Below are positions 11,328-47,620 of a DNA stretch of 64,000 bases, in pieces (within the stretch, counting starts at the first letter, position 1; each line of letters begins with the position of its first letter). The stretch comes from Bacillota bacterium (GTDB lineage Bacteria; Bacillota; Clostridia; Acetivibrionales; DTU013): the NCBI GenBank assembly GCA_023439545.1, contig JAEXNT010000031.1, positions 25,994 to 89,993 of the forward strand, written 5' to 3'. The position numbers and the translations under genes are program-made. The notes below the pieces were generated by a model. It was not told the origin of the DNA. It searched no databases and saw only the letters and a list, made by a program, of their open reading frames with translations.

Positions 11328-11590
11328 GCAGCGCAATGAAGGAAAGAAGACAGGTCCCGGGTTCTCAAGAGAGCCGGTGTTCGGTGCGAACCGGTGACAG
11401 GGATCTGTGGATAACTCGTTCCGGAGCTTCACTATTGCGATACGAATAATTGCAGTAATGACGTTGACTACGTTACAGTCAAGTACAAAAGTACTTGCCG
11501 AGGATAAGCTAAAGCTTGTCGAATCAGGGTGGTACCACGTTGGAAGTTTCCCTTCGTCCCTGCAGTAATGCAGTTGGCGAGGGGTTTTTT
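11328..11590 (+). promoter_or_regulatory. T-box riboswitch leader, probable Leu (CUC) specifier
   Basis: Stem I elements are ATGAAGGAAAGAAGA (K-turn region) and AGAGAG...GGTGCGAA. The specifier loop is GGATAA-CUC-G (CUC at 11415-11417). The T-box sequence is AATCAGGGTGGTACCACG (11522-11539). A terminator at 11549-11584 is followed by T6. Confidence 0.85.
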
Positions 11591-11613
11591 ATACCTGGGG
11601 GAGGGGAGAAATT

Positions 11614-13242: not shown

Positions 13243-13291
13243 CCGACGGATATGAGTTCAGTATTAAGTAATAAGGAAGGGGTTGGGGGAT

Positions 13292-14804
<1,513 letters not shown>

Positions 14805-14900
14805 ATAGAGAGAGGCGGGGGGCTTACCGCCGGATACTTATATATATGAGGGATAGCCGGCTTTCTTTAAGCCGGCGCAGGTATAGAAGGAGGTAATCGC

Positions 14901-30949: not shown

Positions 30950-31809
30950 CTATTTTCACCTGATTTCTGCTCCAGAGCCAGAGTTTTGTTTTTGATTTCC
31001 TTTTCAGCCTCTTCAGCCTCTTCCTTGGATGGACTCCAATAATGGAATGCAGCGTTGCCTTCTCCTTCGGACAACCCCTTGCATTTGACGGTGCGGGCGA
31101 TTATAGCCGTAGGCCTGCCCTTTTCCAGGGGTATCGAGTCGAGGGTTTCTACTATCTCCTGCATGCTGTTGCCGTCTATATTCCTTACTGCCCAGCCGAA
31201 TGCCCTGAAGCGCTCGTCTATGGGCGTCATGTTCATGACGTCCTCCACTTTTCCGCTGATCTGAAGACCATTGTAATCGACAAATAAAACAATATTGTCC
31301 AGATGATAATGGGATGCCACCGAGGCCGCCTCCCAGTTGGAGCCTTCCGGCAGTTCGCCGTCTCCCATCACGACATATATCCTTGCAGCCGGATGCTCAT
31401 CCCTCATGCCCAGCGCCATACCGCAGGCTATCGATAAACCGTGTCCCAGCGCGCCCGTATTTGCTTCCACTCCAGGCAGCTTGTGCATGTCCGGATGACC
31501 CGGGATCTTTGAATGCAGGCTACCGTAGGTATCCAGCACCTCCTTTGTGAAATACCCCTTTTCTGCAAGCACTGCGTATTGAGCCAGGCACTTATGGCCT
31601 GCCGACAAAATAAAACGGTCCCTGTCTTCTTTTTTGGGATTCCTGGGATCGATATTCATCGAGTGAAAGTAAACGGCTGTGACTATATCCAGGCAGGAGA
31701 ACGCCCCGCCTATGTGGCCGTGTTCGCTGGCCTTGATCATTCGTATCACATTTTCACGGCATTTTGATGCCGTCAGTTCCAAAGCGGCTATTTCATTCAA
31801 ATCTGCCAT
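30946..31809 (-). CDS. Transketolase, N-terminal (ThDP-binding) subunit, copy 1
   Basis: GHIGGAFS, SAGH, GDGELPEGSNWEA motifs. Confidence 0.9.
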   Translation of the reverse strand: MADLNEIAALELTASKCRENVIRMIKASEHGHIGGAFSCLDIVTAVYFHSMNIDPRNPKKEDRDRFILSAGHKCLAQYAVLAEKGYFTKEVLDTYGSLHSKIPGHPDMHKLPGVEANTGALGHGLSIACGMALGMRDEHPAARIYVVMGDGELPEGSNWEAASVASHYHLDNIVLFVDYNGLQISGKVEDVMNMTPIDERFRAFGWAVRNIDGNSMQEIVETLDSIPLEKGRPTAIIARTVKCKGLSEGEGNAAFHYWSPSKEEAEEAEKEIKNKTLALEQKSGENR

Positions 31810-32249
31810 CAGATCTCACCTTTTTCATAAGAGACTATTCTGTCGACTTTTGATTTAGACCTCGAATTCGGATCGTAGGCCAATCCTAGATATTCTTTTA
31901 CAAAGCATTTTGCCGATTCTATCCCGGTAACCTGCGCACCCATTGTAATAATGTTGGCGTTATTGCTGAGCTGCGCCCTCTGCGCCTGGTATATATCGGT
32001 GACCAAAGCCGCGTAGGCGCCTTTGACTTTGTTGGCTGCAATACTGACGCCGATGCCCGTCCCGCAGATCAGGACGCCCCTGTCGCATTTGCCTGCCGCA
32101 ACGTCGGTAGCTACTTTAATTGCAGTGTTTGCGTAAATTGGATCGTCGCTGCCGTAATCCACGCATTCGTGCCCCAATGATTCGATATACGGGATCAATG
32201 CCATTTTAAAATCTGTTGCGTTAGGATCGCACCCGATAGCTATTTTCAT
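31809..32249 (-). CDS. rpiB: RpiB/LacAB-family sugar-phosphate isomerase
   Basis: MKIAIGCD..., ICGTGIGVSIAANK; 146 aa; TGATG overlap with the tkt gene. Confidence 0.85.
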   Translation of the reverse strand: MKIAIGCDPNATDFKMALIPYIESLGHECVDYGSDDPIYANTAIKVATDVAAGKCDRGVLICGTGIGVSIAANKVKGAYAALVTDIYQAQRAQLSNNANIITMGAQVTGIESAKCFVKEYLGLAYDPNSRSKSKVDRIVSYEKGEI

Positions 32250-32290
32250 ATCATTACCTCCATTTTATTGAATATCCGGTTTGAATTTTA

Positions 32291-32335
32291 ACTTGTATAT
32301 ACCTGTATAATATAATAAGGTTTCTGATTTGTCAA
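32291..32335 (-). promoter_or_regulatory. Promoter plus GTATATAC-core operator (site A) for rpiB-tkt
   Basis: On the minus strand: TTGACA (32335-32330), 17-nt spacer, TATTAT (32312-32307), then ACAGGTATATACAAGT (32306-32291). Confidence 0.7.
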
Positions 32336-32413
32336 CTGCATGCTGATCGTTATTGAATGAATGCATCGCAAAAGTGAAACAAAAGAACCGCCCCTGCGTT
32401 TCAGTTAATAATC

Positions 32414-32460
32414 TTGACTGTAGGTAATGCCGATGCTAGAATAAAGCTGTATATACAGGT
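32414..32460 (+). promoter_or_regulatory. Promoter plus operator (site B) for the kinase-dhaKL operon
   Basis: TTGACT (32414-32419), 17-nt spacer, TAGAAT (32437-32442), then AGCTGTATATACAGGT (32445-32460, a 12-bp perfect palindrome). Confidence 0.7.
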
Positions 32461-32612
32461 AAGTACAGTGGTATATAGTTATAATTACTGTAATAATAAG
32501 TCATTATAAGCTTAATGGCTGAAAAAATATACAGTTTATTTGTTCCAAGCAGGATGTTCAGCGCCCTTGAGGCGCGAATTACAATTAAAACATCCGAAAA
32601 GGAGAAAAACGT

Positions 32613-33953
32613 ATGGAAAAGACTCTTCTTCAAAGACTTGACACCGATATGGACGCAGAGCTGGCCAGGCTCATCGGGCTATTCAGGGAGAATAAGGCGC
32701 CCGTTTTCAATTCCTACATGAAAGAACACTTCAGGATTGCCAAGAGCAAGCCCGACGAATTTTCAAACCACCCGCCCGTATTGGCAATCTCACTGGGCGG
32801 AACCAATCTCAAGCTTATGATCGCAGGGATGAAGAACGGCACGATGATGGTCGAGCATGTCAGGGCGATGCAGATCCCCGCACACCCGGTTGAATTCACC
32901 GAATTTTTTGACGAGATACTGATGTGTGACGAGTATATAAAAAATTACCTGAGCAAAAATGAAAATACTTACGTAGGCTTTTCCTTCCCGATGGCTATCT
33001 TTGACGGCGTACCCTTTCATCCCACAAAAGTTCCCAATTTAAAGGGAGTCATCATACGGGATATGGACGACCTGAGCCAGAAATTCAATTTTGGAAATAA
33101 TTTTAATACTTACCTGAAGAATCGTGGCTTCCATCCGGTCGAGCTGTTTTACCAGTCCGATGGCATCATTGCGCACCACGGCGCAGTAGCGCTATGCGAT
33201 ACGGAGCTCGAAGACAGCACCACGCTGATCATTTGCGGCACGGGCATGGCGACCGGCGACGAGGAAAATTACATCCAGCTGGGTATAGCTGAAATAATAG
33301 ATAATGATGAAGAAATATATCCCGCCTCTGAAACGGAGAATCACCAGTACCAATATGCATTGGCGGGCAAGGGACTGTTCGGGTTGATGAGAAGATGCAT
33401 CGGGATCGCATCGGAAGAACCGGGATCGCACGTTGCAGGGCATGATCTGAGCGAGTATTTTACGGACTCACAGGGCTCGAAGACGACTGTTCAGATATGG
33501 GAAAGCAGCCTTGAAGGGTGTATCCCGGAGGATGTGGCCGGAACGATATCGGACAGGGTCGGTCCCGAAGCTTACGCCGAGCTGCAGAAAATAGCGGGAA
33601 AAATCGTGGAAAGGGTCATTGGTTCGATCGCAAACAGCGTTGTTTCCACGATTGTAAAGATGGGTCCCGCCGCAAATAAAAAGGGCCATCTGGTATTTTT
33701 CGAGGGCAGCGTCGTAAACAACAGAAATATTTTGCCGAGGGTAAAGACCGAGATAGCCCGGAGGATCAATAATGCAGCGTTATACAGCCGCATTGGGGTA
33801 CCGCAGCCCTTGCTGCCTGATATGGAAAGATCGCTGAAGCCTTTGAAAGCCTGCGGGGGGCTTCCCGAAGCATTGCTTGCGGACGTCGACATCACGCTGA
33901 TAGGAGCGGCGTCATCTGTCATGGCGGAGACCTGTCTGAGAAAGCAGGGATAA
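32613..33953 (+). CDS. Hexokinase-family (ASKHA) sugar kinase, paralogue 1
   Basis: Collinear with eukaryote-type hexokinase motifs: LAISLGGTNLKL (phosphate-1), GFSFP, IICGTGMA (phosphate-2), AGKGLFGLMRR, FFEGSVV. 446 aa. Confidence 0.6.
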   Translation: MEKTLLQRLDTDMDAELARLIGLFRENKAPVFNSYMKEHFRIAKSKPDEFSNHPPVLAISLGGTNLKLMIAGMKNGTMMVEHVRAMQIPAHPVEFTEFFDEILMCDEYIKNYLSKNENTYVGFSFPMAIFDGVPFHPTKVPNLKGVIIRDMDDLSQKFNFGNNFNTYLKNRGFHPVELFYQSDGIIAHHGAVALCDTELEDSTTLIICGTGMATGDEENYIQLGIAEIIDNDEEIYPASETENHQYQYALAGKGLFGLMRRCIGIASEEPGSHVAGHDLSEYFTDSQGSKTTVQIWESSLEGCIPEDVAGTISDRVGPEAYAELQKIAGKIVERVIGSIANSVVSTIVKMGPAANKKGHLVFFEGSVVNNRNILPRVKTEIARRINNAALYSRIGVPQPLLPDMERSLKPLKACGGLPEALLADVDITLIGAASSVMAETCLRKQG

Positions 33954-34053
33954 ACGAATGAAGCGGCAAAACATACGAACTGGTATGACGCTGCCCAGGT
34001 TGGCGACAGCCGTAAGGGCGGCGGTATATTAAATATAATAGGCGGGTGACTAT

Positions 34054-35052
34054 ATGAAAAAAATTCTGAACAAGAACGAAAGTTTCGTGGATGAAAGCCT
34101 GGAAGGCATCCTGGCGGCACACGGCGATATGCTGAAGGCTTGCGGCAGCGATATAAGAGCCGTTTTCAGGGCGGACTGCCCCGTGAAAAACAAGGTTGCC
34201 ATAGTAACGGGAGGCGGCTACGGACACCTGCCCGTTTTCCTGGGATATGTGGGTAAAGGCCTTGCGGATGGCGTTGCGGTCGGAAATGTATTCACTTCTC
34301 CGAGCTGCGATACGATCATAAACGTCACCAGAGAGGTCGACGGCGGAAAAGGCGTGCTTTACCTGTTCGGGAACTATGTCGGAGACGGCATGAATTTCGA
34401 TATGGCCGGGGAGATCGTCGGGCTCGACGGCATAGAGACAAGGATCGTAAAGGTTTCGGACGATATAGCCTCTGCGCCGCGAGAAAGCTGGCAGCAAAGG
34501 CGTGGCGTGGCGGGGCTGTTTTTCGTTTATAAAACTGCAGGCGCAAAAGCCGAGCAGCTGGCTGACCTCGAAGAAGTGCAGAGAATTGCTGAAAAAACCG
34601 CAGAACGCACCGCGACGATGGGCATAGCCATGTCCTCCTGCTGGGTGCCGGGGGCGGGGAGGCCTATATTCGAGATCAGTGAGGAAGATATCGAGGTAGG
34701 CATGGGGATCCATGGAGAACCGGGGGTAGAGCGCATTAAACTGGAAACTTCCAAAGAGATCGCGCAAAGAATAGTACCGAGGCTGGTCGAAGACCTGGGA
34801 CTGAACGACAAGTCCAGGGTTTCGGTGCTTGTCAACGGTTTGGGCTCCACGACTCGTGAAGAGCTTTATATACTGTACAGGGATGTCGATCAGCTGCTTA
34901 AGAGTTTCGGGATTACTACAGTGAAGGTTTTCGTAGGCGAGTACGCCACATCGCTGGAGATGGCGGGAGCCTCGGTCTCCATACTGGAGCTTGACGATGA
35001 ATTGACCGGGCTTTTGGAAGCGTCGGCATGTTCGCCTTTTATCAAATTATAG
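34054..35052 (+). CDS. dhaK: Dihydroxyacetone-kinase family, DhaK (substrate-binding) subunit
   Basis: GGGYGHLPVFLGYVGKG, NVFTSPS, GMGIHGEPG (covalent His retained). Confidence 0.85.
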   Translation: MKKILNKNESFVDESLEGILAAHGDMLKACGSDIRAVFRADCPVKNKVAIVTGGGYGHLPVFLGYVGKGLADGVAVGNVFTSPSCDTIINVTREVDGGKGVLYLFGNYVGDGMNFDMAGEIVGLDGIETRIVKVSDDIASAPRESWQQRRGVAGLFFVYKTAGAKAEQLADLEEVQRIAEKTAERTATMGIAMSSCWVPGAGRPIFEISEEDIEVGMGIHGEPGVERIKLETSKEIAQRIVPRLVEDLGLNDKSRVSVLVNGLGSTTREELYILYRDVDQLLKSFGITTVKVFVGEYATSLEMAGASVSILELDDELTGLLEASACSPFIKL

Positions 35053-35064
35053 GGAGTGGGTAAA

Positions 35065-35691
35065 ATGGCAATAGGAATAAATCAAGTTATCGAGGTCTTG
35101 TTGAAATCGGCGGAAGTAATAACCGCGTCCAAGGATCAACTCGAACAGCTCGACAGTGCCTCAGGCGACGGGGACCTCGGGATATCCATGAAAAGAGGGG
35201 CAGACGCCATCAAAGCAGTTCTGTCCGCCATAGGCGCTGAAAACGATATAGGAAACCTGCTTATTAAGTGCGCGATGGCCTTCAACAAGGAGGCTCCCTC
35301 AACGCTCGGAACGCTGTTGTCCTCCGCGATGCTGGCGGCAGGGAAGGAAACAAAAGGCAGAAGTGAGCTATCGGAAGGCGATGTTGTCAAACTTGCGCAG
35401 ATAATGACAAAAAGTATAATGGATCGCGGCAAGGCGGCTCTTGGAGATAAAACCATACTTGACGCCATGATCCCGATGAGCGAAGCCATGAGCAACAGCT
35501 TCGAACAGGGCGGAAGCCTTGCCGAATCGGTCAATGCCGGCGCTGCTGCGGCTGCGGCAGGGGCGGAAGCTACGAAGGAGCTCGTTGCAAAGGCTGGTAG
35601 GGCCAAATGGATAGGGGAGCGTACGAACGGCTTTCTTGACGGCGGCGCGGTGCTGTGTTCGATAGTCATAAACCACCTGGCGAAGGTTTAG
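35065..35691 (+). CDS. dhaL: Dihydroxyacetone-kinase family, DhaL (nucleotide-binding) subunit
   Basis: ATG lies 8 nt after AGGGAG. DSASGDGDLG Mg/ADP site. About 208 aa. Confidence 0.85.
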   Translation: MAIGINQVIEVLLKSAEVITASKDQLEQLDSASGDGDLGISMKRGADAIKAVLSAIGAENDIGNLLIKCAMAFNKEAPSTLGTLLSSAMLAAGKETKGRSELSEGDVVKLAQIMTKSIMDRGKAALGDKTILDAMIPMSEAMSNSFEQGGSLAESVNAGAAAAAAGAEATKELVAKAGRAKWIGERTNGFLDGGAVLCSIVINHLAKV

Positions 35692-35815
35692 AACTTTTTA
35701 TCGGGTTGAAGTGAAAGAGCCCGGCGCACCTGGAGGTTTATGGAACATGGCAAAAATTTTTGCGCCGCCTAACAATACAGCTTATGTGCTAACGCAATAA
35801 GCTTGCTTGTTCAGA

Positions 35816-35847
35816 AATAGCAGGTGCTCGATGTGCCTGCTATTTTT
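35816..35847 (+). terminator. Intrinsic terminator after dhaL
   Basis: AATAGCAGG-tgctcgatgtg-CCTGCTATT followed by a T run. Confidence 0.8.
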
Positions 35848-35857
35848 ATATAGCCGA

Positions 35858-35902
35858 TTGACAGAGGTGAACATATAGAGTATTATACTTGTATATACAG
35901 CT
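35858..35902 (+). promoter_or_regulatory. Promoter plus operator (site C) ahead of a roughly 200-nt leader and gntR
   Basis: TTGACA (35858-35863), 17-nt spacer, TATTAT (35881-35886), then ACTTGTATATACAGCT (35887-35902). Confidence 0.7.
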
Positions 35903-36065
35903 TTAGTCAGGTTAATACGAAATCAGATTGAAGGCTGTCAGCCCGAAGCGACGGCAAAGGGCAAGCCTACGATCCCGGCGATTCTGTAACGCTCCTTGAT
36001 AATTCAATATTTACAGAGGTCCTGAAGTGCGGCGGCGTCATATTGGTATCGGCATTTTGTAAAAG

Positions 36066-36094
36066 TTGACAATGTCCGATAAATTAACTATAAT
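36066..36094 (+). promoter_or_regulatory. Second, operator-less promoter immediately upstream of gntR
   Basis: TTGACA (36066-36071), 17-nt spacer, TATAAT (36089-36094). Confidence 0.6.
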
Positions 36095-36120
36095 TTTCAT
36101 ATATTATGGAAGGTAAAATT

Positions 36121-36840
36121 ATGCTTGAACGTTCGAATCCGAAGCCCTTATATCTGCAATTGACAGAGATAATAAGGGAAAAAATCCATAACGGCGAATG
36201 GGAAGCCAATAATCCGATACCATCGGAGAATGAGCTCAGCAAGATTTACGGACTGAGCAGGATGACCGTCAGATCCGTTATCACTCAATTCGTTTCCGAG
36301 GGCTTGCTGTACCGTGTACCAGGCAAGGGTACCTTTGTAGCAGAGCCTAAGATCACTGCGAAGTCTTTGTCCTATGCCGGCATAAGGGAACAGCTCGAAC
36401 AAATGGGATATGCGATATCTACCCGGATACTGAGCACCGAGACAATCGGCGCCGCCGGTCAGGTCGCGGAAAACCTGGCTTTGGAAAGCGGCAGTCCCGT
36501 ATATATGATAAAAAGGCTGAGGTACATCGGTGAAAATCCTCTCAGCCTGCATGTGAGCTATGTGCCCGTGGAAATGTGCAAAGGCCTCGATTCTGAAAAA
36601 CTGGAGAAGGAGCAGCTTTGTGTCGTACTCAAAAATGAGTACGGCCTGTCGCGCGGCAAAGTAGTTGAAACTCTCGAATCCTGTATGGCAACGACAACCG
36701 AAGCGAAGCTTCTGGAAATAAAGGCGAACCATCCTCTGCTGCTGCTTGAAGATATCATATATTCCGGCGACGGGATACCTTTCGAATATTCAAAAGTCCT
36801 TTTCAGAGGCGACAAGATCAAGATCAAAATGGAATTCTGA
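36121..36840 (+). CDS. GntR-family regulator, HutC subfamily (UTRA effector domain)
   Basis: Winged HTH ...PSENELSKIYGLSRMTVRSVITQFVSEGLLYRVPGKGTFV. The ATG at 36121 has a GGAAGG RBS. The ORF-track start at 36106 is too close to the -10 box. Confidence 0.85.
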   Translation: MLERSNPKPLYLQLTEIIREKIHNGEWEANNPIPSENELSKIYGLSRMTVRSVITQFVSEGLLYRVPGKGTFVAEPKITAKSLSYAGIREQLEQMGYAISTRILSTETIGAAGQVAENLALESGSPVYMIKRLRYIGENPLSLHVSYVPVEMCKGLDSEKLEKEQLCVVLKNEYGLSRGKVVETLESCMATTTEAKLLEIKANHPLLLLEDIIYSGDGIPFEYSKVLFRGDKIKIKMEF

Positions 36841-36966
36841 CAGTGTTTTCTGAATATGCTCTGCCGACTGATTTTCGCAAATATGCGAAAGTCTTTTTGC
36901 GCATCTCTTTTTAGCCTTGATTATAGCTATGAAACCATTCTTTTATTTCACTAAGGGGGAAATAAT

Positions 36967-38313
36967 ATGAGCAACAACTTACCATTTTGCCGGTTGAATT
37001 GCAGCCTGGGCTCATTGCTGAGTCCGGCCAATGAAGAAGGAAATATCGCCATAATAAGTTCCGATGAAGATTATGTCAGGAGAGTCCAGGACAAACCCCT
37101 CGGACTTGACGAGTTTATAAAATTGAAGGATTTTGTGAAATACATCGGAGTAACCCAAAACTTCAGGGAGATCGTCGACTTCTTCAAATCTCCGAAGGGA
37201 GAAACGCCGGCTGGTTTCCGCGTGGAATACGTGCTGGAGGGTAGTGTTCTGAAAGCCGATCTGGCGAGGGACATCGCCTATGACCGGAACGGAATCAGGC
37301 GGCCGACGAATCTGCTGTTTTCAGCAGATTCCGCGAACCCGTACGAGGTGGCGCCTGTAAGTAACCTCCTTGCCAATCTGACCTGCAACCCCGGGATAAT
37401 ATACGATCTTTTCATAAACAACCCGAAAGCCAATATTGGCAATAAATATAAGACAAGAGACGAGGTCATGGAGGAGATCGGCAGAATACTGGGTCCCGGC
37501 GCCGATATAAGCGTCGAGCTGAACAATCCCTTCTCCGCTTCGGAACAGGAGATTCTCGAGGAAGCTGCGAAATTCAAGGAGATGCTCTCGAAATACAGGG
37601 TTGTTATAAAAGTGCCGCATACCGGTCCCGTCAACAAGGATAACGTCGGGGAGCTTCTGATCGGGGATAAGAAATTCCAGAGACGTTACAGCGACGGCTC
37701 CGTAGAGGACATGTTCAGGGGCCATAACCTGGCGCTCATGCTCCACGAACACGGATACAGGGTCAACTTCACGCTGATGTTCGAGCCGTACCAGACAGCG
37801 CTGGCGCTCCAGGCCAGGCCGTATTTCATCAACAGCTTCATCAGGCACAGGGGCGCCCACACACACATGATAAAAGGACTTCTTGAAGCATACAATACCA
37901 GCGGAGAGACGGCTTTCCTGAAACAGCTGCGCAGTTATATGATCGATACCGATTACTTCTCGGCAAAGGACACGGACATAGACTTTTTCAAGGTGAAGGA
38001 AACCGCAGAGCTTTTTGTTGAACAGAGAAATGCGGATACTGTTGAAGGATCAGACGGTCTCGACGGAGTGAGGCACAACCTCAGGTGGCTGAGGCAGGCC
38101 AACCTGCCCGATACCAGGCTTATAATCTGCAGCATGGAAGGTGAAAGGAACTACCCCGATATCGACAGGCTGTTGACAGAAGAGGAATTCAGAGATATGG
38201 TAGGTAAAGTGGTCATTACGGCAGAGCCCGGATACCTCGCTAGATTCACCTCGACTCCGCAGGTAGTGGCTTACCAGAGAAGATTCATGAATGCGGCAAA
38301 CGGACAAAAGTAA
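36967..38313 (+). CDS. Transaldolase/fructose-6-P-aldolase superfamily protein, long form with an N-terminal extension of about 110 aa
   Basis: Collinear with Fsa/Tal motifs: FSADSANP...NLTCNPGII, VVIKVPHT (Schiff-base Lys), NFTLMFEPYQTALALQARPYFINSFIRHRG. 448 aa, versus about 220 aa for Fsa-type enzymes. Confidence 0.6.
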   Translation: MSNNLPFCRLNCSLGSLLSPANEEGNIAIISSDEDYVRRVQDKPLGLDEFIKLKDFVKYIGVTQNFREIVDFFKSPKGETPAGFRVEYVLEGSVLKADLARDIAYDRNGIRRPTNLLFSADSANPYEVAPVSNLLANLTCNPGIIYDLFINNPKANIGNKYKTRDEVMEEIGRILGPGADISVELNNPFSASEQEILEEAAKFKEMLSKYRVVIKVPHTGPVNKDNVGELLIGDKKFQRRYSDGSVEDMFRGHNLALMLHEHGYRVNFTLMFEPYQTALALQARPYFINSFIRHRGAHTHMIKGLLEAYNTSGETAFLKQLRSYMIDTDYFSAKDTDIDFFKVKETAELFVEQRNADTVEGSDGLDGVRHNLRWLRQANLPDTRLIICSMEGERNYPDIDRLLTEEEFRDMVGKVVITAEPGYLARFTSTPQVVAYQRRFMNAANGQK

Positions 38314-38330
38314 AAGGAGAAATGTAATAG

Positions 38331-39899
38331 ATGTGGCAGGCGGCTATCCCGTTTTCTAATGTTTTTATTGCCGCCGTAATTGCGGCGGCGCCTATAATAT
38401 GGATATTGTTCGGCATGCTGAAGCTTCAGCTGCCATCGTACAAAACAGGGCTCATAGCGCTTGCGATGGTGGCGCTGTCTGCGCTCCTGATATGGAAGAT
38501 GCCTGCCGGGCTGCTGATCCAGTCCGTCGTGGAAGGTGTGATGCTCGGTCTTTTCCCCATAATATGGGTCATATTTGCAGCCATATTCACCTATAACCTT
38601 CTCGTAAAGAGCGGCGCAATGGAAAAGATAAAGCGGATGCTTTCGAGCATATCGACGGATCCCCGTGCGCAGGTGATCATAATAGCATTTGCCTTCGGTG
38701 GGTTCATGGAGGCCACGGCAGGCTTCGGGACCGCTGTTGCGATCCCTGTGACCATTCTTATTTCAATGGGTTTCGAAGCTGAGCTTGCAGCCGTACTGTG
38801 CCTCGTCGCGAACACTGTGCCTGTGGCTTTCGGAGTCGTGGGCATACCTGTCATAACGCTCGCACAGCTGACAGGTCTGCCGCTTGGAGAGGTTTCGTTC
38901 AACACCGCGCTTCAACTGCTGCCGTTATCCGTGGTATTGCCTTTGATACTTGTCATCATAACTACCGGAAGGATCAGGGACGTAAAGGGAATGATCCCTG
39001 CAGCAGTCGTCAGCGGCATCACCTTTGCGGCAGGCCAGACACTGGTCGCGTGGGCCGTGGGTCCGGAGCTTGCTGCGGTAGTCGGTTCGATACTTGCCCT
39101 GGCGGCTTCTGTAGTGTGCGTCAGACTGCAGGGAAACAAAAAAGTCTGGCAATTCCCGGGCCGGATACAAACCGGTGCGGAGAAGGGCCCGAAGGTCGGG
39201 TTGGTTGAAGGTCTCAAGGCCTGGAGCCCATATATTTTTATCCTGGTATTCGTACTTGCTACCAGGCTGCTGCCCGCGCTGAGTTTTCTGAACAAGGCGC
39301 CGTTCACGGTGAAGCGCCTGTTCTATACCGGCAAGGGCGGATCGCCTATGAGCTTCCAGCTCCTGTCCAACCCCGGTACGATCATACTGATTGCAGCCAT
39401 ACTCGGCGGACTGATCCAAAGGGTAAGCTTCAAGGATATCCTCTCAGTCGGTTGGATGACGCTGAAGCAGATTACGAAAACAACGGTTACCGTGTTGACG
39501 ATCATACCTCTTTCGAAGGTAATGGGCTACAGCGGTATGATCTCAGTGATTTCGACGGGACTTACCAACGTGACGGGATCGTTCTTCCCTCTCATTTCGC
39601 CCTTCATAGGCGCACTGGGAACGTTCATAACGGGCAGCGATACTTCCGCTAACGCTTTATTCGGCGAATTGCAGAGGCAGACGGCGCAGCAGATCGGGAG
39701 CAGCCCGGCCTGGCTGGCAGCCTCCAATGCTGCCGGTGCGACCATCGGGAAGATGATATCGCCGCAAAGTATTGCAATAGCGGTTTCAGCCATAGGCTTG
39801 CCGGAGCTTGAAGGAAAGATTATGAAAAGGACTCTGAAATATGCAGTTGTTTTCGTAGTAGTCCTTGGAATAATAGTATACGCGGGTAATATAGGTTGA
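38331..39899 (+). CDS. L-lactate/glycolate permease (LctP) family transporter
   Basis: 522 aa, polytopic. The conserved FAFGGFMEATAGFGTAVAIP segment is typical of the LctP family. Confidence 0.8.
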   Translation: MWQAAIPFSNVFIAAVIAAAPIIWILFGMLKLQLPSYKTGLIALAMVALSALLIWKMPAGLLIQSVVEGVMLGLFPIIWVIFAAIFTYNLLVKSGAMEKIKRMLSSISTDPRAQVIIIAFAFGGFMEATAGFGTAVAIPVTILISMGFEAELAAVLCLVANTVPVAFGVVGIPVITLAQLTGLPLGEVSFNTALQLLPLSVVLPLILVIITTGRIRDVKGMIPAAVVSGITFAAGQTLVAWAVGPELAAVVGSILALAASVVCVRLQGNKKVWQFPGRIQTGAEKGPKVGLVEGLKAWSPYIFILVFVLATRLLPALSFLNKAPFTVKRLFYTGKGGSPMSFQLLSNPGTIILIAAILGGLIQRVSFKDILSVGWMTLKQITKTTVTVLTIIPLSKVMGYSGMISVISTGLTNVTGSFFPLISPFIGALGTFITGSDTSANALFGELQRQTAQQIGSSPAWLAASNAAGATIGKMISPQSIAIAVSAIGLPELEGKIMKRTLKYAVVFVVVLGIIVYAGNIG

Positions 39900-39907
39900 C
39901 GGTCACC

Positions 39908-39933
39908 GGCCGGCGTATTGACATACGCCGGCC
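39908..39933 (+). terminator. GC-rich stem-loop after the permease gene (no T run)
   Basis: GGCCGGCGTAT-tgac-ATACGCCGGCC. Confidence 0.4.
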
Positions 39934-40015
39934 ATGAACGCATAATATTGATTACACCGCATAAATTGCATGCGAGCCTCGCAATTTCGTCCGGGTTAAG
40001 CATGGGGGATATTGA

Positions 40016-41515
40016 ATGATCAAAGTTATGATCGTGGAAGATGTGGATATCATAAGGGAGGATGTCATACGGCTGATCAACTGGCAGGAACACGGTTTTA
40101 TCGTGATAGCCGAAGCCAGGAACGGCGAGATGGGTCTCGAAATGTTCAGGAAGCACAAGCCTGAAATTGTCATTACCGATATCAGGATGCCTGTCATGAC
40201 CGGCCTCGATATGATACAGGAGATACAGAAGACCGACAAGGATACGCAGTTCATTCTCTTGACGGACTACGGCGAGTTCGAGTATGCAAAAAAGGCCATG
40301 TATCTGGACGTCCATTCTTATCTTCTGAAATATGAACTGGACGATGACATGTTGCTCCGCGAACTCGAAAAAGTGCGCGCAATCGTTGAAAAACAGCGGA
40401 ATATAAACAGGATGACGAAGTCGGAATATCTCAAGGATTGGCTCATCCATGGCAAACGGGAAGCGGACGATCCCCAAAGCTTTTTTGGCTGGTACGGCCA
40501 CTGCTCCCTGATCGTAATAGATGCAAAAGGCTTCGACCGTAAGTCGTCCGAGCTTTATAACGACCTGCGGGAACAGCTGAATTCCGAAGCTCAGACTTAT
40601 GAATTCGAATATATAGAAATGTCCCCGCAGGAGTATGTCATTTTTTTAAAGGTATCCGAAAGCTTCAGCGAGTTGAAAAGCATGAATTATATAAGGACGT
40701 TTATCAGCCGCCTGCAGACATTGTTCAGGGAGACTTGCGCATTGGAGACGGCCGCCGCCGTGGGCGCGTATATCTATGGCTCTGGTGATGTCGCCGACGC
40801 CTACAGAAAAACAAAAAAACTTTTGCAGCAGAAAGTTTTTTACCCGAAAAGCTGCATCATAGATTTCCCCCCGCCGGAGCCTCCGGCAGCCCGGAAAGAG
40901 GAGGTCGCGCAGCTCCTGAAGTCCATCAGGTCCAATATACAAAACCTTAATGCCGACGAACTGCACGATCAGATACCCAGGCTTTTTACAGGCCTTCTGC
41001 GCGCGATCAAAAGTACCGAGCTGCTTGAAAACAGCGTCAGAGAACTTACCTTTGCGATCGCGAGCCGCAGCGTTCAGGGAAAAACGGACAACATGGGCGA
41101 AGTGCTTGATGAGATCATGGACTCCGTTCGCAATTATAACGTATATGTGCTTGCCGAGCTCTTCGACAAGGCGATAGAAATGCTAGGCGCCGATTTCGGT
41201 ACACGGTATTCCAAGCGTGTGAATGCCATCATAAGATACATTTCCGAGCATTACGGCGATGATATCAGTCTCTATGACCTTTCAAAGGAACTGGACCTCA
41301 GCGTGATTTATATCAGCCAGTTATTCAAGAAGGAAGTGGGCATTACCTTCTCGGCGTATCTGACGAAGGTCAGGATCGATAAGGCGATCGAGCTGCTCAG
41401 GACAGGACGCTACAAGGTGTACGAAGTGAGTAAAATGGTCGGCTATCAGACGGTCCAGTATTTCAGCAATATATTCAAAAAGGAAACCGGCAAAAAACCG
41501 GGCGATTTCTGTTAA
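40016..41515 (+). CDS. Response regulator with AraC-type HTH output (YesN-like)
   Basis: REC domain (VITDIRMPVMTG) plus C-terminal AraC HTH pair. 499 aa. Confidence 0.85.
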   Translation: MIKVMIVEDVDIIREDVIRLINWQEHGFIVIAEARNGEMGLEMFRKHKPEIVITDIRMPVMTGLDMIQEIQKTDKDTQFILLTDYGEFEYAKKAMYLDVHSYLLKYELDDDMLLRELEKVRAIVEKQRNINRMTKSEYLKDWLIHGKREADDPQSFFGWYGHCSLIVIDAKGFDRKSSELYNDLREQLNSEAQTYEFEYIEMSPQEYVIFLKVSESFSELKSMNYIRTFISRLQTLFRETCALETAAAVGAYIYGSGDVADAYRKTKKLLQQKVFYPKSCIIDFPPPEPPAARKEEVAQLLKSIRSNIQNLNADELHDQIPRLFTGLLRAIKSTELLENSVRELTFAIASRSVQGKTDNMGEVLDEIMDSVRNYNVYVLAELFDKAIEMLGADFGTRYSKRVNAIIRYISEHYGDDISLYDLSKELDLSVIYISQLFKKEVGITFSAYLTKVRIDKAIELLRTGRYKVYEVSKMVGYQTVQYFSNIFKKETGKKPGDFC

Positions 41516-41585: not shown

Positions 41586-41631
41586 TTGACTGAGCCCGGC
41601 CATTGTGCTATATTTTACTGTATATACAAGT
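41586..41631 (+). promoter_or_regulatory. Promoter plus operator (site D) for the GH2-kinase operon
   Basis: TTGACT (41586-41591), 17-nt spacer, TATATT (41609-41614), then TACTGTATATACAAGT (41616-41631). Confidence 0.7.
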
Positions 41632-41742: not shown

Positions 41743-44241
41743 ATGAAAAACACTGTAATACTCAAAGAAGGATGGTCGATCAGAAAAATAAATCCCGCTG
41801 ACAGTCTTGACGAAAAGCGGATAGCGGAGTACTCGGCGGGTAACAGCGGGGAACTGTCTGCCGGGATGCCCGCACAGGTCCATGAAATATTGCTGGGGTA
41901 CGGTAAGATAGAAGATCCGACAGTTCTGGGGAATACTGAAAAATGTCTCTGGGTGTCCGAATCCGACTGGATATACAAATGCGAATTCAATGCAACCAAA
42001 GCAGGCAAAAGGCAGTATCTGAACTTCAAAGGGCTCGACACACTGGCTGACATCTATCTGAACGGCAGTCATATCGCCAGCCATAACGATATGTACATTC
42101 CACTCAGGGTAGATGTGACAGAGACCTTGAGGGATACCAATACGCTTCTCGTCCATTTTCACTCGCCCCAGGAATATCTCAGGCATCACAGCTGCGCCGC
42201 GATCGACAGCGGCAAGGTGGCAAAGCATAAATTACTCAGAAAGCCCGTGCATGATTTTATAGATTTTCTTGGTACAAAGCCGTATTTTACAAATATAGGC
42301 ATATTCGCCGACGTCATACTCGAGACGGCGGAGGAATGTGAGCTCGTATACGCCGACATACAGGCGAAGCTCAGCGATGATTACAAGAACGGTATTTTGC
42401 AGATAACTGCGGACGGTCTGGGCCGGCTCGAGAACGGTTCACTGGAGATCACTGTCACTGCGCCCGACGGGAAGGTTTGCGGTAAGCTTTCGGTGAACCT
42501 CGGAAAAACCGGGGCGGACGAATGGGCTAAGAATGCCAGGCTTTCAATTGAGGAACCTGCCCTTTGGTGGCCGCGCACTCTCGGCGGACAGCCCCTCTAC
42601 AAGGTTGAGGTCGGTTTGACGGACAACGGTGTTCTGACGGATAAAGTTGTAAAGAACATAGGTTTCAGGAAGATAGAAATGGCCGAGCCGTTTGACTTTA
42701 CCATAAACGGGAGGCCTTTGAAGCTCTGGGGGGCGTGTTTCGCGCCTACGCAGAGGTTAACCAACGTATGGAGCAGCAGGATTGCCAATACTCTTATGGA
42801 TATGGTCGAGAACGCCAACATGAATATCATGAGGATATGGGGCGAGGGAGTGCCGTACCCGGACGAATTGTACGATGAGGCGGACAAGAGGGGACTCCTG
42901 CTCTGGCAGGAATTCTACATGAGCTACGGAATGCATCCGGATGAAGAGTGGTACAAGGAACTCTGCAGAAAAGAAGCCGAATATGTTGTAAAGAGATTGA
43001 AGAACCGCGCTTCGGTTTTGATGTGGTGCGGCGGCAACGAGACCTCGATGAGTGTGCAATACGACCACCCGGGCGAGAAATGCTACGGTGACGAGATCTA
43101 TCTCGAAGATTACAAGAAAATATGCGAAAGCTTGGATCCGGACCGGTATTATCATCCGACTTCACCCTACGGAGGCGCTTTTGCGAACAGTCCGCGCGAG
43201 GGCGATACCCATGGGTATACTCATATCTGGTACGTACCGGGAGCCGATTACCCCGTATTCCTTTCCGAGAATACAAGGGTTTCGACGCCTGCCCTGAAAA
43301 GCATGAAAAAATACATGGGGGATAAGCTGTGGCCCGATGGCTATACGCCAATGGTGAGAAACCATCAGGAGCCTCCGATGCCGGAAACATGGATTGAGCG
43401 TGCTCCCGGCGGCGTATGGGAACGAACCAAAAATTTTGAGAAGTTCTATGACGCCGATAATCCGGAAGACCTTATCTACAGGCTGAGCTCGGCGCACACA
43501 CAGCATATAAGGGAAACGGCGGAAAGATCGAGAAGGGGCAGGCCTGCATACGATACTTCCGGTAAAAGGATCTGCAAGGGGCATACCGTATGGAAGCTGA
43601 ATGAACCGTATCCGGCCTTCTATTCAAGCATGATAGACTATTACCTCGAGCCGAATATGCCGTATTATGCTTTAAGGCGGGCCAACGAACCCGTACTGCT
43701 TTCGTTCGACGTAGGTAACGACATATACCTGTGGATCGTTAATGACAGCGCCGTTGCGGCAGGAGGGACTGTAGTCTGCGACCTGTTCAACCCGAGGACA
43801 AACTCTGTGATAAAGGAAATGAGGAAGGAAGTAACCGTATCGCCCGATGAATCCAAGGTCATTTTCAGGCTAGACGAATTCGGTCAGTTCAGGCGTGAGA
43901 ATTTCCTCTACGCACGGCTTGAGGACAAAAACGGGAACGTCATTGCCAGAACCAACGATTACGTCGACAGCGAGCGTTATTTGTACTTCCCCGACGCAGC
44001 TCTCAAATTGCGGCAGGAGGGAGAAGAGCTTGTAATAAAGGCGGATAAATTCGCAAGGTGCATAGAGCTGTCGGGCAACGATAACGGAGATGAATTCGGC
44101 TGGTTCTTCCAGGACAATTATTTTGATCTGATGCCCTGGGAAACGAAGAGGGTCAGGGTCCTCGGGAAACACAGCAAGGGGCTGGTCACGGCCAAAGCCC
44201 GGTTTTCTTCGCACAGGGCGGAAATACAATACAAAAAGTAA
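41743..44241 (+). CDS. Glycoside hydrolase family 2, beta-mannosidase-like, paralogue 1 (intracellular)
   Basis: 832 aa. RIWGEGVPY...LLLWQEF, acid/base WCGGNE, nucleophile region FLSEN. No signal peptide. Confidence 0.8.
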   Translation: MKNTVILKEGWSIRKINPADSLDEKRIAEYSAGNSGELSAGMPAQVHEILLGYGKIEDPTVLGNTEKCLWVSESDWIYKCEFNATKAGKRQYLNFKGLDTLADIYLNGSHIASHNDMYIPLRVDVTETLRDTNTLLVHFHSPQEYLRHHSCAAIDSGKVAKHKLLRKPVHDFIDFLGTKPYFTNIGIFADVILETAEECELVYADIQAKLSDDYKNGILQITADGLGRLENGSLEITVTAPDGKVCGKLSVNLGKTGADEWAKNARLSIEEPALWWPRTLGGQPLYKVEVGLTDNGVLTDKVVKNIGFRKIEMAEPFDFTINGRPLKLWGACFAPTQRLTNVWSSRIANTLMDMVENANMNIMRIWGEGVPYPDELYDEADKRGLLLWQEFYMSYGMHPDEEWYKELCRKEAEYVVKRLKNRASVLMWCGGNETSMSVQYDHPGEKCYGDEIYLEDYKKICESLDPDRYYHPTSPYGGAFANSPREGDTHGYTHIWYVPGADYPVFLSENTRVSTPALKSMKKYMGDKLWPDGYTPMVRNHQEPPMPETWIERAPGGVWERTKNFEKFYDADNPEDLIYRLSSAHTQHIRETAERSRRGRPAYDTSGKRICKGHTVWKLNEPYPAFYSSMIDYYLEPNMPYYALRRANEPVLLSFDVGNDIYLWIVNDSAVAAGGTVVCDLFNPRTNSVIKEMRKEVTVSPDESKVIFRLDEFGQFRRENFLYARLEDKNGNVIARTNDYVDSERYLYFPDAALKLRQEGEELVIKADKFARCIELSGNDNGDEFGWFFQDNYFDLMPWETKRVRVLGKHSKGLVTAKARFSSHRAEIQYKK

Positions 44242-44284: not shown

Positions 44285-45622
44285 ATGAAGGATTTGATCT
44301 CCAGGCTGAGGGTAGATCCCGACAGGGATCTCAAAAGGCTTCTGGAAGCTATGGACAATAACGGGGTCTCCATACTGCCCACCGGCATGGAAAGGCATTT
44401 TGAGATAGCCAGGCTTAAGCCGGCCGGGTTCCGGAACCACGATACCGTGCTCGGCATTTCCATAGGCGGTTCGAATACGAAGGTAATCCTTGCATCCATG
44501 AGAGACGGGAGGCTGGTCATCCATCATCTTGCCGCCAGGGCGAACCCTCTGACGAAAACGCACTATACCGATTACTTCGATTCCTTTTTGTTTGGGGATA
44601 AAGCAATCAGGGAATACATGAGTAATTCCAAAGACCTGTGCGTCGGCATATCCGTGGCGGTTCCCATAATTGACGGAGTACCGTTCCATAAGCACAAGAT
44701 ACCTACTATAGAAGGCCTGATCGCGCGTGATTATGAGAGGGACGCGGCGACCCATAACATATATGAAAACATGCGGGCATACCTGAAAGAGCGGGGAGTG
44801 GCGGTAAGGTCGCTGTTTTGCCAGTTCGATTCCATAGTGGCAAACTACGGCGGCGCATCGCTCAGCGAGCTCGGACCGGATGAAAAGACAATGCTGCTTG
44901 TCTGCGGTACCGGGCTGGCAGCCGCTATAGAGCAGAATACGGTGTCTATCGGGATGGCCGACGTATTCGACAAAACTCTTGATGACGATACCCTTCTGCC
45001 TTTTGACCTTACCGAAGGCCATCAATACCAGTATGCGATTGCGGGAAAAGGCCTCTATGGCCTTATGGAGAGGGCTGTCAGACTAAAGGCGCGAGAGGCG
45101 GGTTCGAAGCTGCAATCGTTCGATCCCGCAGTTTATTTCAAAACAGCTTACGACACCAGATCGGTAGTAGAGTTGTGGGAAAGTACGCTGGGACACGGTA
45201 TCATGGGAAAAGCAAAGGAAATATTGAGCGAGGCCGGCTCCGATATGTTTTTTGAGCTGCAGGACATCGCTTCCGCAATAGTTGAGCGTGCCATTACAGG
45301 GCTCGCTAACTGTGCGGCGGCGGCGATCTACGCGGACTCTTCCGCCGGCGGCAAACCGCATACCGTATTTTTCGAGGGTAGTATAGCCTTGAACGGGAAT
45401 ATGCTGCCAAGGATCAAAAACGAGATCATCCACAGGATCGGCTCGAGCCCTGCGTATGACGAACTGAATATTCCCAGGCCTCCGGTACCTTTGCTGTGCA
45501 AGACCCCGATGCCTGTTATTTCAGATAATGCGGGTATTCCGGAAAGGGAATTGCAGCAGGTAGACCTGACTGTAAAGGGAGCCGTAACCTCGGCTATAGC
45601 CGAAGATATCCTTAAAGCCTGA
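44285..45622 (+). CDS. Hexokinase-family (ASKHA) sugar kinase, paralogue 2
   Basis: Collinear with the 32613 gene: LGISIGGSNTKV, GISVAVP, LLVCGTGLA, HQYQYAIAGKGLYGLMER, VFFEGSIA. Confidence 0.6.
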   Translation: MKDLISRLRVDPDRDLKRLLEAMDNNGVSILPTGMERHFEIARLKPAGFRNHDTVLGISIGGSNTKVILASMRDGRLVIHHLAARANPLTKTHYTDYFDSFLFGDKAIREYMSNSKDLCVGISVAVPIIDGVPFHKHKIPTIEGLIARDYERDAATHNIYENMRAYLKERGVAVRSLFCQFDSIVANYGGASLSELGPDEKTMLLVCGTGLAAAIEQNTVSIGMADVFDKTLDDDTLLPFDLTEGHQYQYAIAGKGLYGLMERAVRLKAREAGSKLQSFDPAVYFKTAYDTRSVVELWESTLGHGIMGKAKEILSEAGSDMFFELQDIASAIVERAITGLANCAAAAIYADSSAGGKPHTVFFEGSIALNGNMLPRIKNEIIHRIGSSPAYDELNIPRPPVPLLCKTPMPVISDNAGIPERELQQVDLTVKGAVTSAIAEDILKA

Positions 45623-45826
45623 TCCGTGATTAAAAAGCCAGCCAGATACTGCCGTACCAAAACCAATCACAGTGTGGTACACTATATGCTAACCAAGCCC
45701 GGGACGAAATCCCCGGGCGCCCGCATTGCTGCACATTGCAAAGGTATGGTACCTTCAGCAACTCTATTTATGACCGTATACATAATCTTGTTTTTGCTTA
45801 TGTACAGTTATGGGGAGGTGACGGCA

Positions 45827-47539: not shown

Positions 47540-47620
47540 ATAATAATAGTTTTGTTATGTATAACCCTTAAAATAAAAGTTCTATACTTGCAATATAAAA
47601 TTCAAGGAGGAGGCAGTAAA

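Follow-up and report, generated by a model that had tools for sequence, protein, structure and literature searches.

What does a protein of the transaldolase superfamily do when it is twice as long as the small transaldolases and its gene stands directly ahead of one for a permease of the lactate/glycolate family? The question is raised by a locus in a 64,000-nucleotide stretch (hereafter the window, numbered from its first letter) of contig JAEXNT010000031.1, positions 25,994 to 89,993, assembly GCA_023439545.1, from a member of the Bacillota affiliated to the Clostridia, Acetivibrionales, DTU013. The gene, on the plus strand at 36967-38313, codes for a long-form transaldolase-superfamily enzyme of 448 amino acids (aa), and TALL is the name that we coined for its family. 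Our analyses show that TALL is a distinct, uncharacterised long branch of the transaldolase/fructose-6-phosphate aldolase (Tal/FSA) superfamily, and comparative genomics places it in a conserved module with a GntR/HutC regulator, a split transketolase, an isomerase of the RpiB family and a shared palindrome. The novelty lies in this large and architecturally distinct branch, the Tal/FSA superfamily itself being already known. As to function, we lean, with modest confidence, towards a specialised transaldolase acting on a non-ordinary substrate within an inducible, horizontally mobile catabolic module of carbon rearrangement, formed with transketolase, RpiB and GntR.

The TALL reading frame is preceded, at 7 nt, by the Shine-Dalgarno sequence AAGGGGG, and independent public gene calls on contigs with an identical protein give the same coordinates for TALL and for the permease gene. 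Both agree with the two open reading frames (ORFs), the 17-bp spacing and the 448-aa product reported in a first-pass annotation of the region 36967-39899. The assignment to the Tal/FSA superfamily made there also holds, as judged from the barrel model and structural matches described below and from the Pfam family PF00923 (TAL_FSA), which TALL matches with 40.5 bits against a cutoff of 27. This match covers only residues 120-292 and profile positions 3-160 of 285, about the first half. Beyond it, no NCBIfam model matched; a search of the PDB with the single sequence (phmmer) returned nothing significant (best E = 0.59), and the same database searched with a profile of 43 TALL sequences gave no match at E <= 0.01. 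The small Tal/FSA subfamily has proteins of ~210-230 aa, and TALL could not be recognised as one of them by sequence, either in the PDB or among 1.84 billion representative proteins. Nor does it resemble the classical TalB type (~317 aa): the target-normalised TM-score to Francisella TalA (3te9) was 0.52, with an rmsd of 17.6, and there was no sequence match. An end-to-end alignment with a characterised transaldolase subfamily of the same length, which would have undone the claim of novelty, was not found, and the claim stands. To our knowledge, the described transaldolase subfamilies are all about 210-380 aa long, and a full-text literature search found no paper on the TALL family; papers on Pseudoramibacter and on sulfoglycolysis in E. 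rectale contributed nothing of relevance.

How widespread is this long form? A collection of 5.8 billion proteins yielded more than 1,775 matches; the best 120 of them are 430-480 aa long and 64-96% identical to the window protein over 93-100% of its length. In their sources, TALL homologues are labelled only as “transaldolase family protein” or “hypothetical protein”. Scanning one genome per species confirmed 215 loci. We retained 80 of these (numbered with an L below), which together with the window form the set of 81 loci used throughout. Across the 80, TALL is 59-92% identical to the window copy; the family, 430-456 aa in length, is represented in eight or more phyla of anaerobes, at 59-70% identity. 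The hosts belong to Bacillota, Bacteroidota, Spirochaetota, Acidobacteriota, Verrucomicrobiota, Planctomycetota, Desulfobacterota, Ignavibacteria and Betaproteobacteria, and include cultivable organisms (Acetobacterium, Eubacterium limosum, E. callanderi, E. barkeri and E. aggregans, Pseudoramibacter, Anaerobium). The family is at the same time isolated. When the 1.84 billion representatives, clustered at 50% identity, were searched with phmmer, TALL was reduced to a single full-length representative and some fragments; the search retrieved neither a canonical transaldolase at E <= 1e-3 nor any bridging sequence. TALL thus remains a family without characterised member, NCBIfam model or sequence-detectable relative in the PDB.

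The structure predicted for the window protein explains its length. An AlphaFold2 model built on the 43-sequence alignment (pLDDT 88.7, pTM 0.85) places eight barrel strands at residues 117-121, 135-139, 180-184, 212-217, 265-271, 287-291, 384-388 and 415-419, followed by a C-terminal helix (431-444) that also aligns with small transaldolases in MAFFT. In this model the TALL core is a complete small-transaldolase (beta/alpha)8 barrel of ~215 aa, superposable on solved Tal/FSA structures. The best Foldseek matches in the PDB were the transaldolases of Thermotoga maritima, Thermoplasma acidophilum and Bacillus subtilis, the SF-transaldolase and FSA (E ~5e-11); target-normalised TM-scores to 1vpx, 3s0c, 3r8r, 8c4i and 5zol were 0.75-0.82, at sequence identities of only 14-16%.

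Three additions account for the difference from the small, decameric-type transaldolases. The first is an N-terminal alpha/beta domain of 113 residues by predicted secondary structure (36967-37305), found throughout the family, with conserved motifs such as GETPAGFR. An N-terminal extension of about 110 aa had been noted before and is real, since the barrel begins at about residue 116. Its description as novel stands in so far as this domain, modelled separately (pLDDT 76.6), found no significant fold match in the PDB with Foldseek (best E = 2.0, probability 0.06), but it is no peculiarity of this gene: TALL forms a tight, isolated sequence island whose members share the N-terminal region and the insertion, which are therefore family-wide traits. 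The second addition, insert 1 (37624-37704; residues 220-246), directly follows the strand that carries the catalytic lysine and appears as a gap in hhalign alignments with small Tal/FSA proteins. An internal insertion of about 35 aa had been recognised, and it exists, although it is shorter, 27 aa, and the largest insert was missed. This third addition, insert 2 (37846-38115; residues 294-383), is modelled as a helical subdomain of ~90 aa between strands 6 and 7, with helices at 294-312, 315-327, 340-353 and 366-378. It begins with the motif R293-H294-R295, and the invariant residues of the region are R293, H294, R295, D329, R354, D363, D366 and R369.

Is the barrel an active enzyme? We aligned the TALL family profile (hhalign, probability 84%) with reference sequences from the PDB, namely the transaldolases of B. 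subtilis, T. maritima, Thermus thermophilus and T. acidophilum and the FSA of Escherichia coli; “invariant” refers to the 43 TALL homologues. With T. acidophilum numbering in second place, D121 corresponds to D6, N141 to Asn28 of the TTNP motif, E184 to E60, K215 to Lys86, N267 and T269 to N108 and T110, and F291 to F132, and all are invariant. The catalytic hallmarks of the superfamily are accordingly present: the strand-4 Lys, the strand-1 Asp, the Asn of the TNP motif and the strand-5 Asn/Thr. The barrel and the catalytic Asp/Asn/Glu/Lys/Asn-Thr/Phe set are common to TALL and the small transaldolases 3s0c (T. acidophilum), 1vpx (T. maritima) and 3r8r (B. subtilis). Lys215, the predicted Schiff-base lysine (codon at 37609-37611), lies on strand 4 within VVIKVPHT; this context and the TNP-like motif NLTCNPGII, which contains N141, had both been picked out in the first-pass annotation, and the alignment of the catalytic lysine, on which it had made its assignment depend, is correct. 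PDB titles (K86A, E60Q/F132Y, Schiff-base complexes) bear out the numbering of K86, E60 and F132 and the parts that these residues play. TALL as a pseudoenzyme or structural protein was considered and ruled out, every catalytic residue being invariant. Sequence and model together predict a catalytically competent class-I (Schiff-base) transaldolase-type enzyme.

Transaldolases and FSA share this chemistry and differ in what becomes of the dihydroxyacetone unit. A Glu and Phe pair is the transferase signature, Gln and Tyr that of FSA, and exchanging the pair switches the activity; it is this double change that is reported to confer aldolase activity on the E60Q/F132Y variant of the T. acidophilum enzyme (PDB 4xz9). 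TALL carries the transferase-type pair, E184 on strand 3 and F291 after strand 6, where FSA has Gln59 and Tyr131. Since Lys215 is combined with the transferase-type rather than the aldolase-type set, we predict that Lys215 would form an imine with a ketose donor and that TALL would move a dihydroxyacetone unit to an aldehyde acceptor. The alternative is an FSA-like lyase that would split a ketose or ketose phosphate into free dihydroxyacetone and an aldehyde, the former then being phosphorylated by DhaK/DhaL. FSA is among the best structural matches, E. coli FSA (1l6w) and TALL have the same small barrel and the same positions for the Schiff-base lysine and for the strand-7 S-x-(K/R) motif, and DhaK and DhaL genes belong to the same predicted regulon in the window and occur in 10 and 8 of the 81 loci, respectively. 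However, about 88% of the loci lack DhaKL, and the Gln59 and Tyr131 of FSA are replaced in TALL by Glu184 and Phe291, which makes a lyase very unlikely. FSA also has no extra domains, and its Lys168 is replaced by Glu391.

The last of these replacements concerns the distal end of the pocket. In unconstrained MAFFT alignments of the C-terminal segments, TALL IICSMEG falls opposite AASIR of the transaldolases and AASFK of FSA. The strand-7 Ser is retained (S389), whereas the phosphate-binding Arg169 of Tal or Lys168 of FSA gives way to Glu391 (codon at 38137-38139), invariant in the family, so that the Ser-x-Arg/Lys motif is lost; the register agrees with the predicted strand at 384-388. After strand 6, moreover, TALL has R293-H294-R295 where small transaldolases have G-R135. 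E391, E420 and the R-H-R motif are invariant or nearly so. Because Glu391, along with R293-H294-R295, makes the distal pocket unlike that of any characterised relative, one of the substrate partners probably lacks the ordinary terminal phosphate.

If so, which pathway does the enzyme serve? The permease next door would seem the obvious guide. The gene at 38331-39899 (plus strand; 522 aa) codes for an LctP-family protein, as previously proposed: it matches PF02652 over its full length (463 bits) and TIGR00795 with 440.1 bits (cutoff 341.15). It falls well below the equivalog models of the L-lactate permease LldP (NF007740, 309.7 bits vs 918) and of the glycolate permease GlcA (NF007249, 265.5 bits vs 1121). 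Exactly 17 bp (AAGGAGAAATGTAATAG) separate it from TALL; this spacer includes a Shine-Dalgarno sequence but lacks a terminator, which makes co-transcription plausible. One could thus regard TALL and LctP as a dedicated pair working on one hydroxy-acid substrate and as the essence of the locus. Such a pair recurs in all contigs with an identical protein and in loci L001 and L002, and other lineages place other organic-anion transporters beside TALL. The pairing is therefore not an isolated case, which would have counted against the first-pass annotation, but neither is it a conserved association: LctP adjoins TALL in only 3 of the 81 loci, namely the window and its close relatives L001 (92% identical to the window copy) and L002 (88%), and is best seen as a lineage-specific add-on. 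The partners that persist across phyla are transketolase, RpiB and GntR and, with the permease also below both equivalog cutoffs, we consider a dedicated TALL-LctP pair unlikely.

The module itself became apparent when ORFs were called in the 80 loci and the window, clustered by BLAST and annotated through Pfam searches with cluster representatives. The C-terminal transketolase subunit is found in 48 of the 81 loci and the N-terminal one in 45, followed by a DHDPS-like aldolase (25), the GntR/UTRA regulator and RpiB (24 each), a D-2-hydroxyacid dehydrogenase (21), a PfkB kinase and a class-II FBP-type aldolase (18 each), an FGGY kinase (17) and an SBF transporter (14). Within the window, these partners lie on the minus strand: the C-terminal (pyrimidine-binding plus C-terminal domain) transketolase subunit at 30017-30949 (PF02779, PF02780), the N-terminal, ThDP-binding subunit at 30946-31809 (PF00456) and the RpiB/LacAB-family sugar(-phosphate) isomerase at 31809-32249 (PF02502, 146.9 bits). 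They had escaped attention because they are outside the region 36967-39899 and on the other strand. The GntR/UTRA (HutC-type) regulator, in contrast, had been noticed, and its identity is confirmed by PF00392 (65 bits) and PF07702 (117 bits) at 36106-36840, plus strand, upstream of TALL. Across loci, TALL is the best conserved component, with a median identity to the window copy of 64%, whereas each transketolase subunit reaches 57% and RpiB and GntR reach 52%, and its identity exceeds that of the N-terminal subunit in 37 of 37 paired loci. A canonical transaldolase is found near TALL in a single locus, L040, and none is encoded in the window. In L040, the cluster with TALL at 8001-9305 also holds, at 10793-11440, a canonical transaldolase of 215 aa (225.8 bits to the small-Tal hidden Markov model), which hints that the long and the canonical enzyme are not redundant.

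Are these genes controlled together? An operator-like palindrome links them. It occurs as CTGTATATACAG at 32447-32458, an exact copy, and as a second, imperfect copy at ~32292-32309, both within the promoter region between the divergent rpiB-tkt genes (30017-32249) and a kinase operon (32613-35691); as TTGTATATACAG at 35889-35900, directly downstream of a strong promoter-like site (35858-35886) and ahead of gntR-TALL-lctP; and as CTGTATATACAA at 41618-41629, upstream of a GH2 glycosidase gene. The window contains eight matches to the core TGTATATACA at no more than two mismatches, against 1.5 expected by chance. Among the 81 loci, exact copies of this 10-mer number 24 in the 24 loci with a GntR gene and 3 in the 57 loci without it, a density of 0.687 versus 0.038 per 10 kb, or ~18-fold. 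They lie directly upstream of TALL in L023, L026, L035 and L061 and of the N-terminal transketolase gene in L032 and L046, as well as upstream of rpiB and gntR, the hosts being Firmicutes, Spirochaetes and Planctomycetes. From this distribution we predict that TALL, the split transketolase and RpiB form one repressor-controlled regulon. L001 has an equivalent of the 41618 site, and the palindrome ahead of the window GH2 suggests that the substrate of the regulon may arrive as a glycoside.

No separate operator precedes TALL in the window, and control of TALL there would depend on read-through from gntR past a terminator-like or attenuator hairpin at 36870-36893 (plus strand), with a stem of 10 pairs followed by TTTTTG. 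TALL-lctP is probably expressed in this way from the autoregulated gntR promoter, or else from a weak internal promoter. The stem is formed by a near-perfect 18-bp palindrome (TTTCGCAAATATGCGAAA, 36873-36890) whose two self-complement mismatches are both in the central loop. We considered this palindrome as an operator and rejected it in favour of a terminator or attenuator, as it occurs only once in the window and L002 does not conserve it; the hairpin is partly conserved in L001 only and absent in L002. An Rfam scan of 32000-40200 for riboswitches or leaders gave no match at E <= 1. Just after lctP, at 39908-39933, a GC-rich hairpin (GGCCGGCGTAT-TGAC-ATACGCCGGCC) is the likely end of the transcription unit, its role being a matter of inference because it lacks a T-run.

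Taken together, the specialised transaldolase that we favour would work as follows. Transketolase and TALL would break down an atypical or acidic sugar taken up by the cell, or the aldehydes set free from that sugar, to C2 and C3 units and place these on glyceraldehyde 3-phosphate (G3P), giving xylulose 5-phosphate (Xu5P) and fructose 6-phosphate (F6P), and LctP would import the substrate or export a small hydroxy-acid remainder. Around this core, lineages add their own transporter, usually of an organic-anion type, kinases and dehydrogenases; in the window these are LctP, DhaK/DhaL and a hexokinase-like kinase. Several points weigh against such a role. The equivalence of Glu391 and Arg169 rests on short, highly divergent segments and predicted secondary structure, and hhalign gave no alignment for the C-terminal 77 residues of TALL (strands 7-8). 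R293 or R295 could still bind phosphate, with ordinary substrates as the consequence. The assignment of the operator comes from motif enrichment only, and TALL of the window is not directly preceded by a TGTATATACA site. The various TALL contexts do not share any single entry enzyme or substrate. Kinases (FGGY, PfkB, DhaKL, hexokinase-like), class-II FBP-type aldolases and phosphatases are frequent neighbours, as would befit ordinary sugar-phosphate chemistry, and the neighbourhood also fits the draining of erythrose 4-phosphate (E4P) or sedoheptulose 7-phosphate (S7P).

These points lead to an alternative in which TALL is an ordinary transaldolase (EC 2.2.1.2) that interconverts S7P and G3P with E4P and F6P on behalf of a local sugar or polyol, its extra domains serving oligomerisation or regulation. 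One example would be the draining of E4P that a DAK-family kinase and an RpiB-family isomerase produce from tetruloses. Indeed, several TALL loci unite the components of the known routes from erythritol or erythrulose to E4P: a DAK-family kinase, an RpiB-family isomerase, transketolase/transaldolase and a class-II aldolase. In Mycobacterium, the route from erythritol or erythrulose to E4P depends on Tal or Fba downstream. The transferase-type set with Glu184 and Phe291, the constant partnership with transketolase and RpiB, DhaK/DhaL in 10 loci, the invariant R293/R295 that could bind phosphate and the fact that TALL is, apart from L040, the sole Tal-like enzyme of its module all speak for this alternative. 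The class-II FBP-type aldolase (18 loci) and the PHP and HAD phosphatases fit, besides, an alternative sedoheptulose-bisphosphate route for E4P. Erythritol catabolism in Brucella, via E4P, requires both Fba and Tal (PMC11508834), and the PF02502 family includes an erythrulose-4-phosphate isomerase (PMC9594981).

An ordinary transaldolase would not lead one to expect an invariant Glu391 at the phosphate-binding Arg/Lys site, nor ~230 extra residues that stay 59-70% identical across phyla, more tightly conserved than the partner transketolase, if they formed a mere packaging variant. The isolation of the family, with no intermediates to canonical transaldolases, and the presence of both enzymes in L040 are further difficulties. 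The genes appear to form a repressor-type inducible regulon, not a housekeeping operon, which argues against constitutive expression. The neighbouring transporters are of organic-anion rather than sugar or polyol types, and the erythritol-degrading Brucella and Mycobacterium have a canonical transaldolase where TALL loci have the long form and organic-anion transporters instead of a polyol ABC system; no EryA/B/C-type genes were identified at TALL loci. Ribulose-phosphate epimerase is likewise not among the recurrent neighbours: tkt and rpiB genes are present, and no cluster of epimerase size recurs in at least three loci, though no rpe model was run. On balance, an ordinary transaldolase is possible but somewhat doubtful.

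Which known pathway does the module resemble most? By analogy of logic, the nearest is the sulfo-transketolase/transaldolase (sulfo-TK/TAL) system. The sulfo-TK pathway comprises a split transketolase (SqwGH), a PF02502 isomerase (SqwI), an iron-dependent alcohol dehydrogenase (Fe-ADH; SqwF) and an exporter (PMC9594981), to which the bifurcated sulfo-TK/TAL variant adds the transaldolase SftT (PMC11659671). In both, C2 or C3 units of a ketose without a phosphate tail are passed to G3P, and the remainder is reduced or oxidised and exported (PMC9594981, PMC11659671). The TALL module, too, unites a split transketolase, a PF02502 isomerase and a transaldolase in one cluster; it differs in having the 448-aa form, instead of an ordinary transaldolase of ~220 aa, and LctP, TRAP, TTT or SBF transporters. 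Could it then be a sulfoquinovose module with TALL as sulfofructose transaldolase? Apart from the shared logic, some loci contain an Fe-ADH and an SF-transaldolase structure is among the Foldseek matches. Yet a sulfoquinovosidase (GH31), a sulfoquinovose isomerase and a sulfonate exporter are all absent from the annotated recurrent neighbour clusters, although not every singleton gene was scanned, and because these pathway-specific genes are missing there we reject this possibility as extremely improbable. Furthermore, known SF transaldolases have ~220 aa (8bc3, 226 aa), and a Glu where the anion binds would be unfavourable to a sulfonate.

The D-apiose pathway offers another comparison: it has a split transketolase, AptA/AptB, and an FGGY apulose kinase, encoded in a cluster of E. 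coli SE15 (PMC13001218). The apiose and TALL clusters are both inducible sugar-catabolic clusters with a dedicated split transketolase, and FGGY kinases occur in both. The window transketolase subunits are 42% (N-terminal, to AptA) and 35% (C-terminal, to AptB) identical to their counterparts, and the apiose cluster, unlike the TALL module, has neither a transaldolase-like gene nor RpiB. An apiose pathway was therefore dropped as a hypothesis: identities of only 35-42% and a validated cluster without transaldolase and RpiB are not diagnostic.

A more speculative extension of the specialised-transaldolase reading, which we put forward tentatively and regard as rather unlikely, is that TALL belongs to an undescribed but widespread anaerobe route, a carboxylate or non-phosphate-tail counterpart of sulfo-TK/TAL. 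An imported keto-sugar acid would be dismantled without prior phosphorylation, or, alternatively, free aldehydes would be supplied from sugar acids by DHDPS-type aldolases. TALL would move C3 and transketolase C2 units onto G3P, yielding F6P and Xu5P, and the aldehyde-acid remainder (e.g. tartronate semialdehyde or glyoxylate) would be reduced by 2-hydroxyacid or alcohol dehydrogenases and leave the cell by carriers of the LctP type. Specificity for the non-phosphorylated partner would then be determined by the Arg-to-Glu change at 391 together with the extra domains. Accessory enzymes of sugar-acid type, which speak for the specialised transaldolase in general, are found near TALL, namely an MR/MLE dehydratase-like protein in L002, the DHDPS-like aldolase, the 2-hydroxyacid dehydrogenase and a FAH-family hydrolase. 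The L002 protein, from the enolase superfamily and of the acid-sugar dehydratase type, adjoins rpiB in a locus whose TALL is 88% identical to the window copy.

The transporters beside TALL vary by lineage, all of them from organic-anion families: TAXI-TRAP in spirochaetes, TctC/TctA in Deltaproteobacteria, SBF in polysaccharide-utilisation loci of Bacteroidales, and LctP in the window and its two close relatives. The TAXI-TRAP, TctABC-type and SBF transporters lend indirect support to the hydroxy- or organic-acid link proposed in the first-pass annotation. As clues to the substrate, the flanks of spirochaete TALL genes contained only unrelated genes.

Other lineage-specific neighbours are diverse. 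In L008 (4341-7233) and L044 (5276-12645), acetate-kinase-like and phosphotransacylase-like genes lie inside the tkt-TALL cluster, together with a FAH-family hydrolase in L008 and 2-oxoacid:ferredoxin oxidoreductase subunits in L044, which suggests that ATP is conserved from an acyl-CoA or acyl-phosphate of the pathway remainder. The Acetobacterium loci L053, L054, L056, L065 and L074 (~9400-16000) have, directly after TALL and a class-II FBP-type aldolase, E1-alpha, E1-beta, E2, E3 and lipoate-protein ligase genes, a complex of the acetoin/2-oxoacid-dehydrogenase type, and a fused E1 alpha-beta gene lies directly upstream of TALL in L077. In Bacteroidales (for example L029, 5420-7900, and L049, 6711-7862), the genes directly upstream of TALL, within a SusC/SusD polysaccharide-utilisation locus, encode an RraA-like protein that bears an N-terminal signal peptide and a DUF362 protein whose leader is twin-arginine-like. 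Eubacterium and Pseudoramibacter (L042, L045, L050, L051, L059, L060) carry three to four tandem DeoC/LacD-like aldolase paralogues with the two transketolase genes and TALL, an unusual amplification of one aldolase family, accompanied by PHP and HAD phosphatases and an FGGY kinase. In Acidobacteria (L039, L069, L075, L076), a GlpP-like protein (PF04309, the family of glycerol-3-phosphate-responsive antiterminators) is encoded divergently from TALL, beside DhaL-DhaK-FBA-HAD genes.

The kinase operon, divergent from tkt-rpiB, begins downstream of the operator at 32447 with a hexokinase-like ASKHA protein (32613-33953, plus strand, 446 aa) and continues on the same strand with DhaK (34054-35052, PF02733) and DhaL (35056-35691, PF02734), the two-subunit dihydroxyacetone-kinase family, for which the best NCBIfam match was NF011049. 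The hexokinase-like protein has a paralogue at 44285-45622, the two being 445-446 aa long and both encoded downstream of TGTATATACA sites; the second follows the 41618 palindrome and the beta-mannosidase-like glycosidase at 41743-44241, identified by its GH2 domains. Neither paralogue matched a Pfam or NCBIfam family above threshold, the only signals being that the N-terminal region of hexokinase-2 was matched weakly (E = 1.3e-5) and BcrAD_BadFG below threshold, and their cluster was seen in no locus other than the window and L001. Two-component systems flank the locus, one with a histidine kinase and a LuxR-type response regulator and one with an AraC-type response regulator and a HAMP histidine kinase, and an ABC solute-binding protein is also encoded (27648-29865, 40016-41515 and 45626-48985 for these genes together), an arrangement typical of carbohydrate-sensing islands in Clostridia.

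TALL would add a sixth, architecturally distinct subfamily to the transaldolases. Its members abound in anaerobic digesters, sediments, peat and the guts of termites and vertebrates, and also in acetogens that can be cultivated, among them Acetobacterium and Eubacterium limosum/callanderi. With its dedicated transketolase and RpiB, its predicted repressor and operator and its altered anion-binding site, the module offers a tractable entry point. If TALL accepts partners that are acidic or carry no phosphate, it would account for the recovery of carbon by strict anaerobes from sugar acids or from short, toxic aldehydes, and would provide a new biocatalyst for forming carbon-carbon bonds with unphosphorylated substrates, a property now engineered into FSA and TalB. 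Even if it proves to be an ordinary transaldolase, its recognition would still correct the gaps called in the pentose-phosphate pathway in many genome models of anaerobes.

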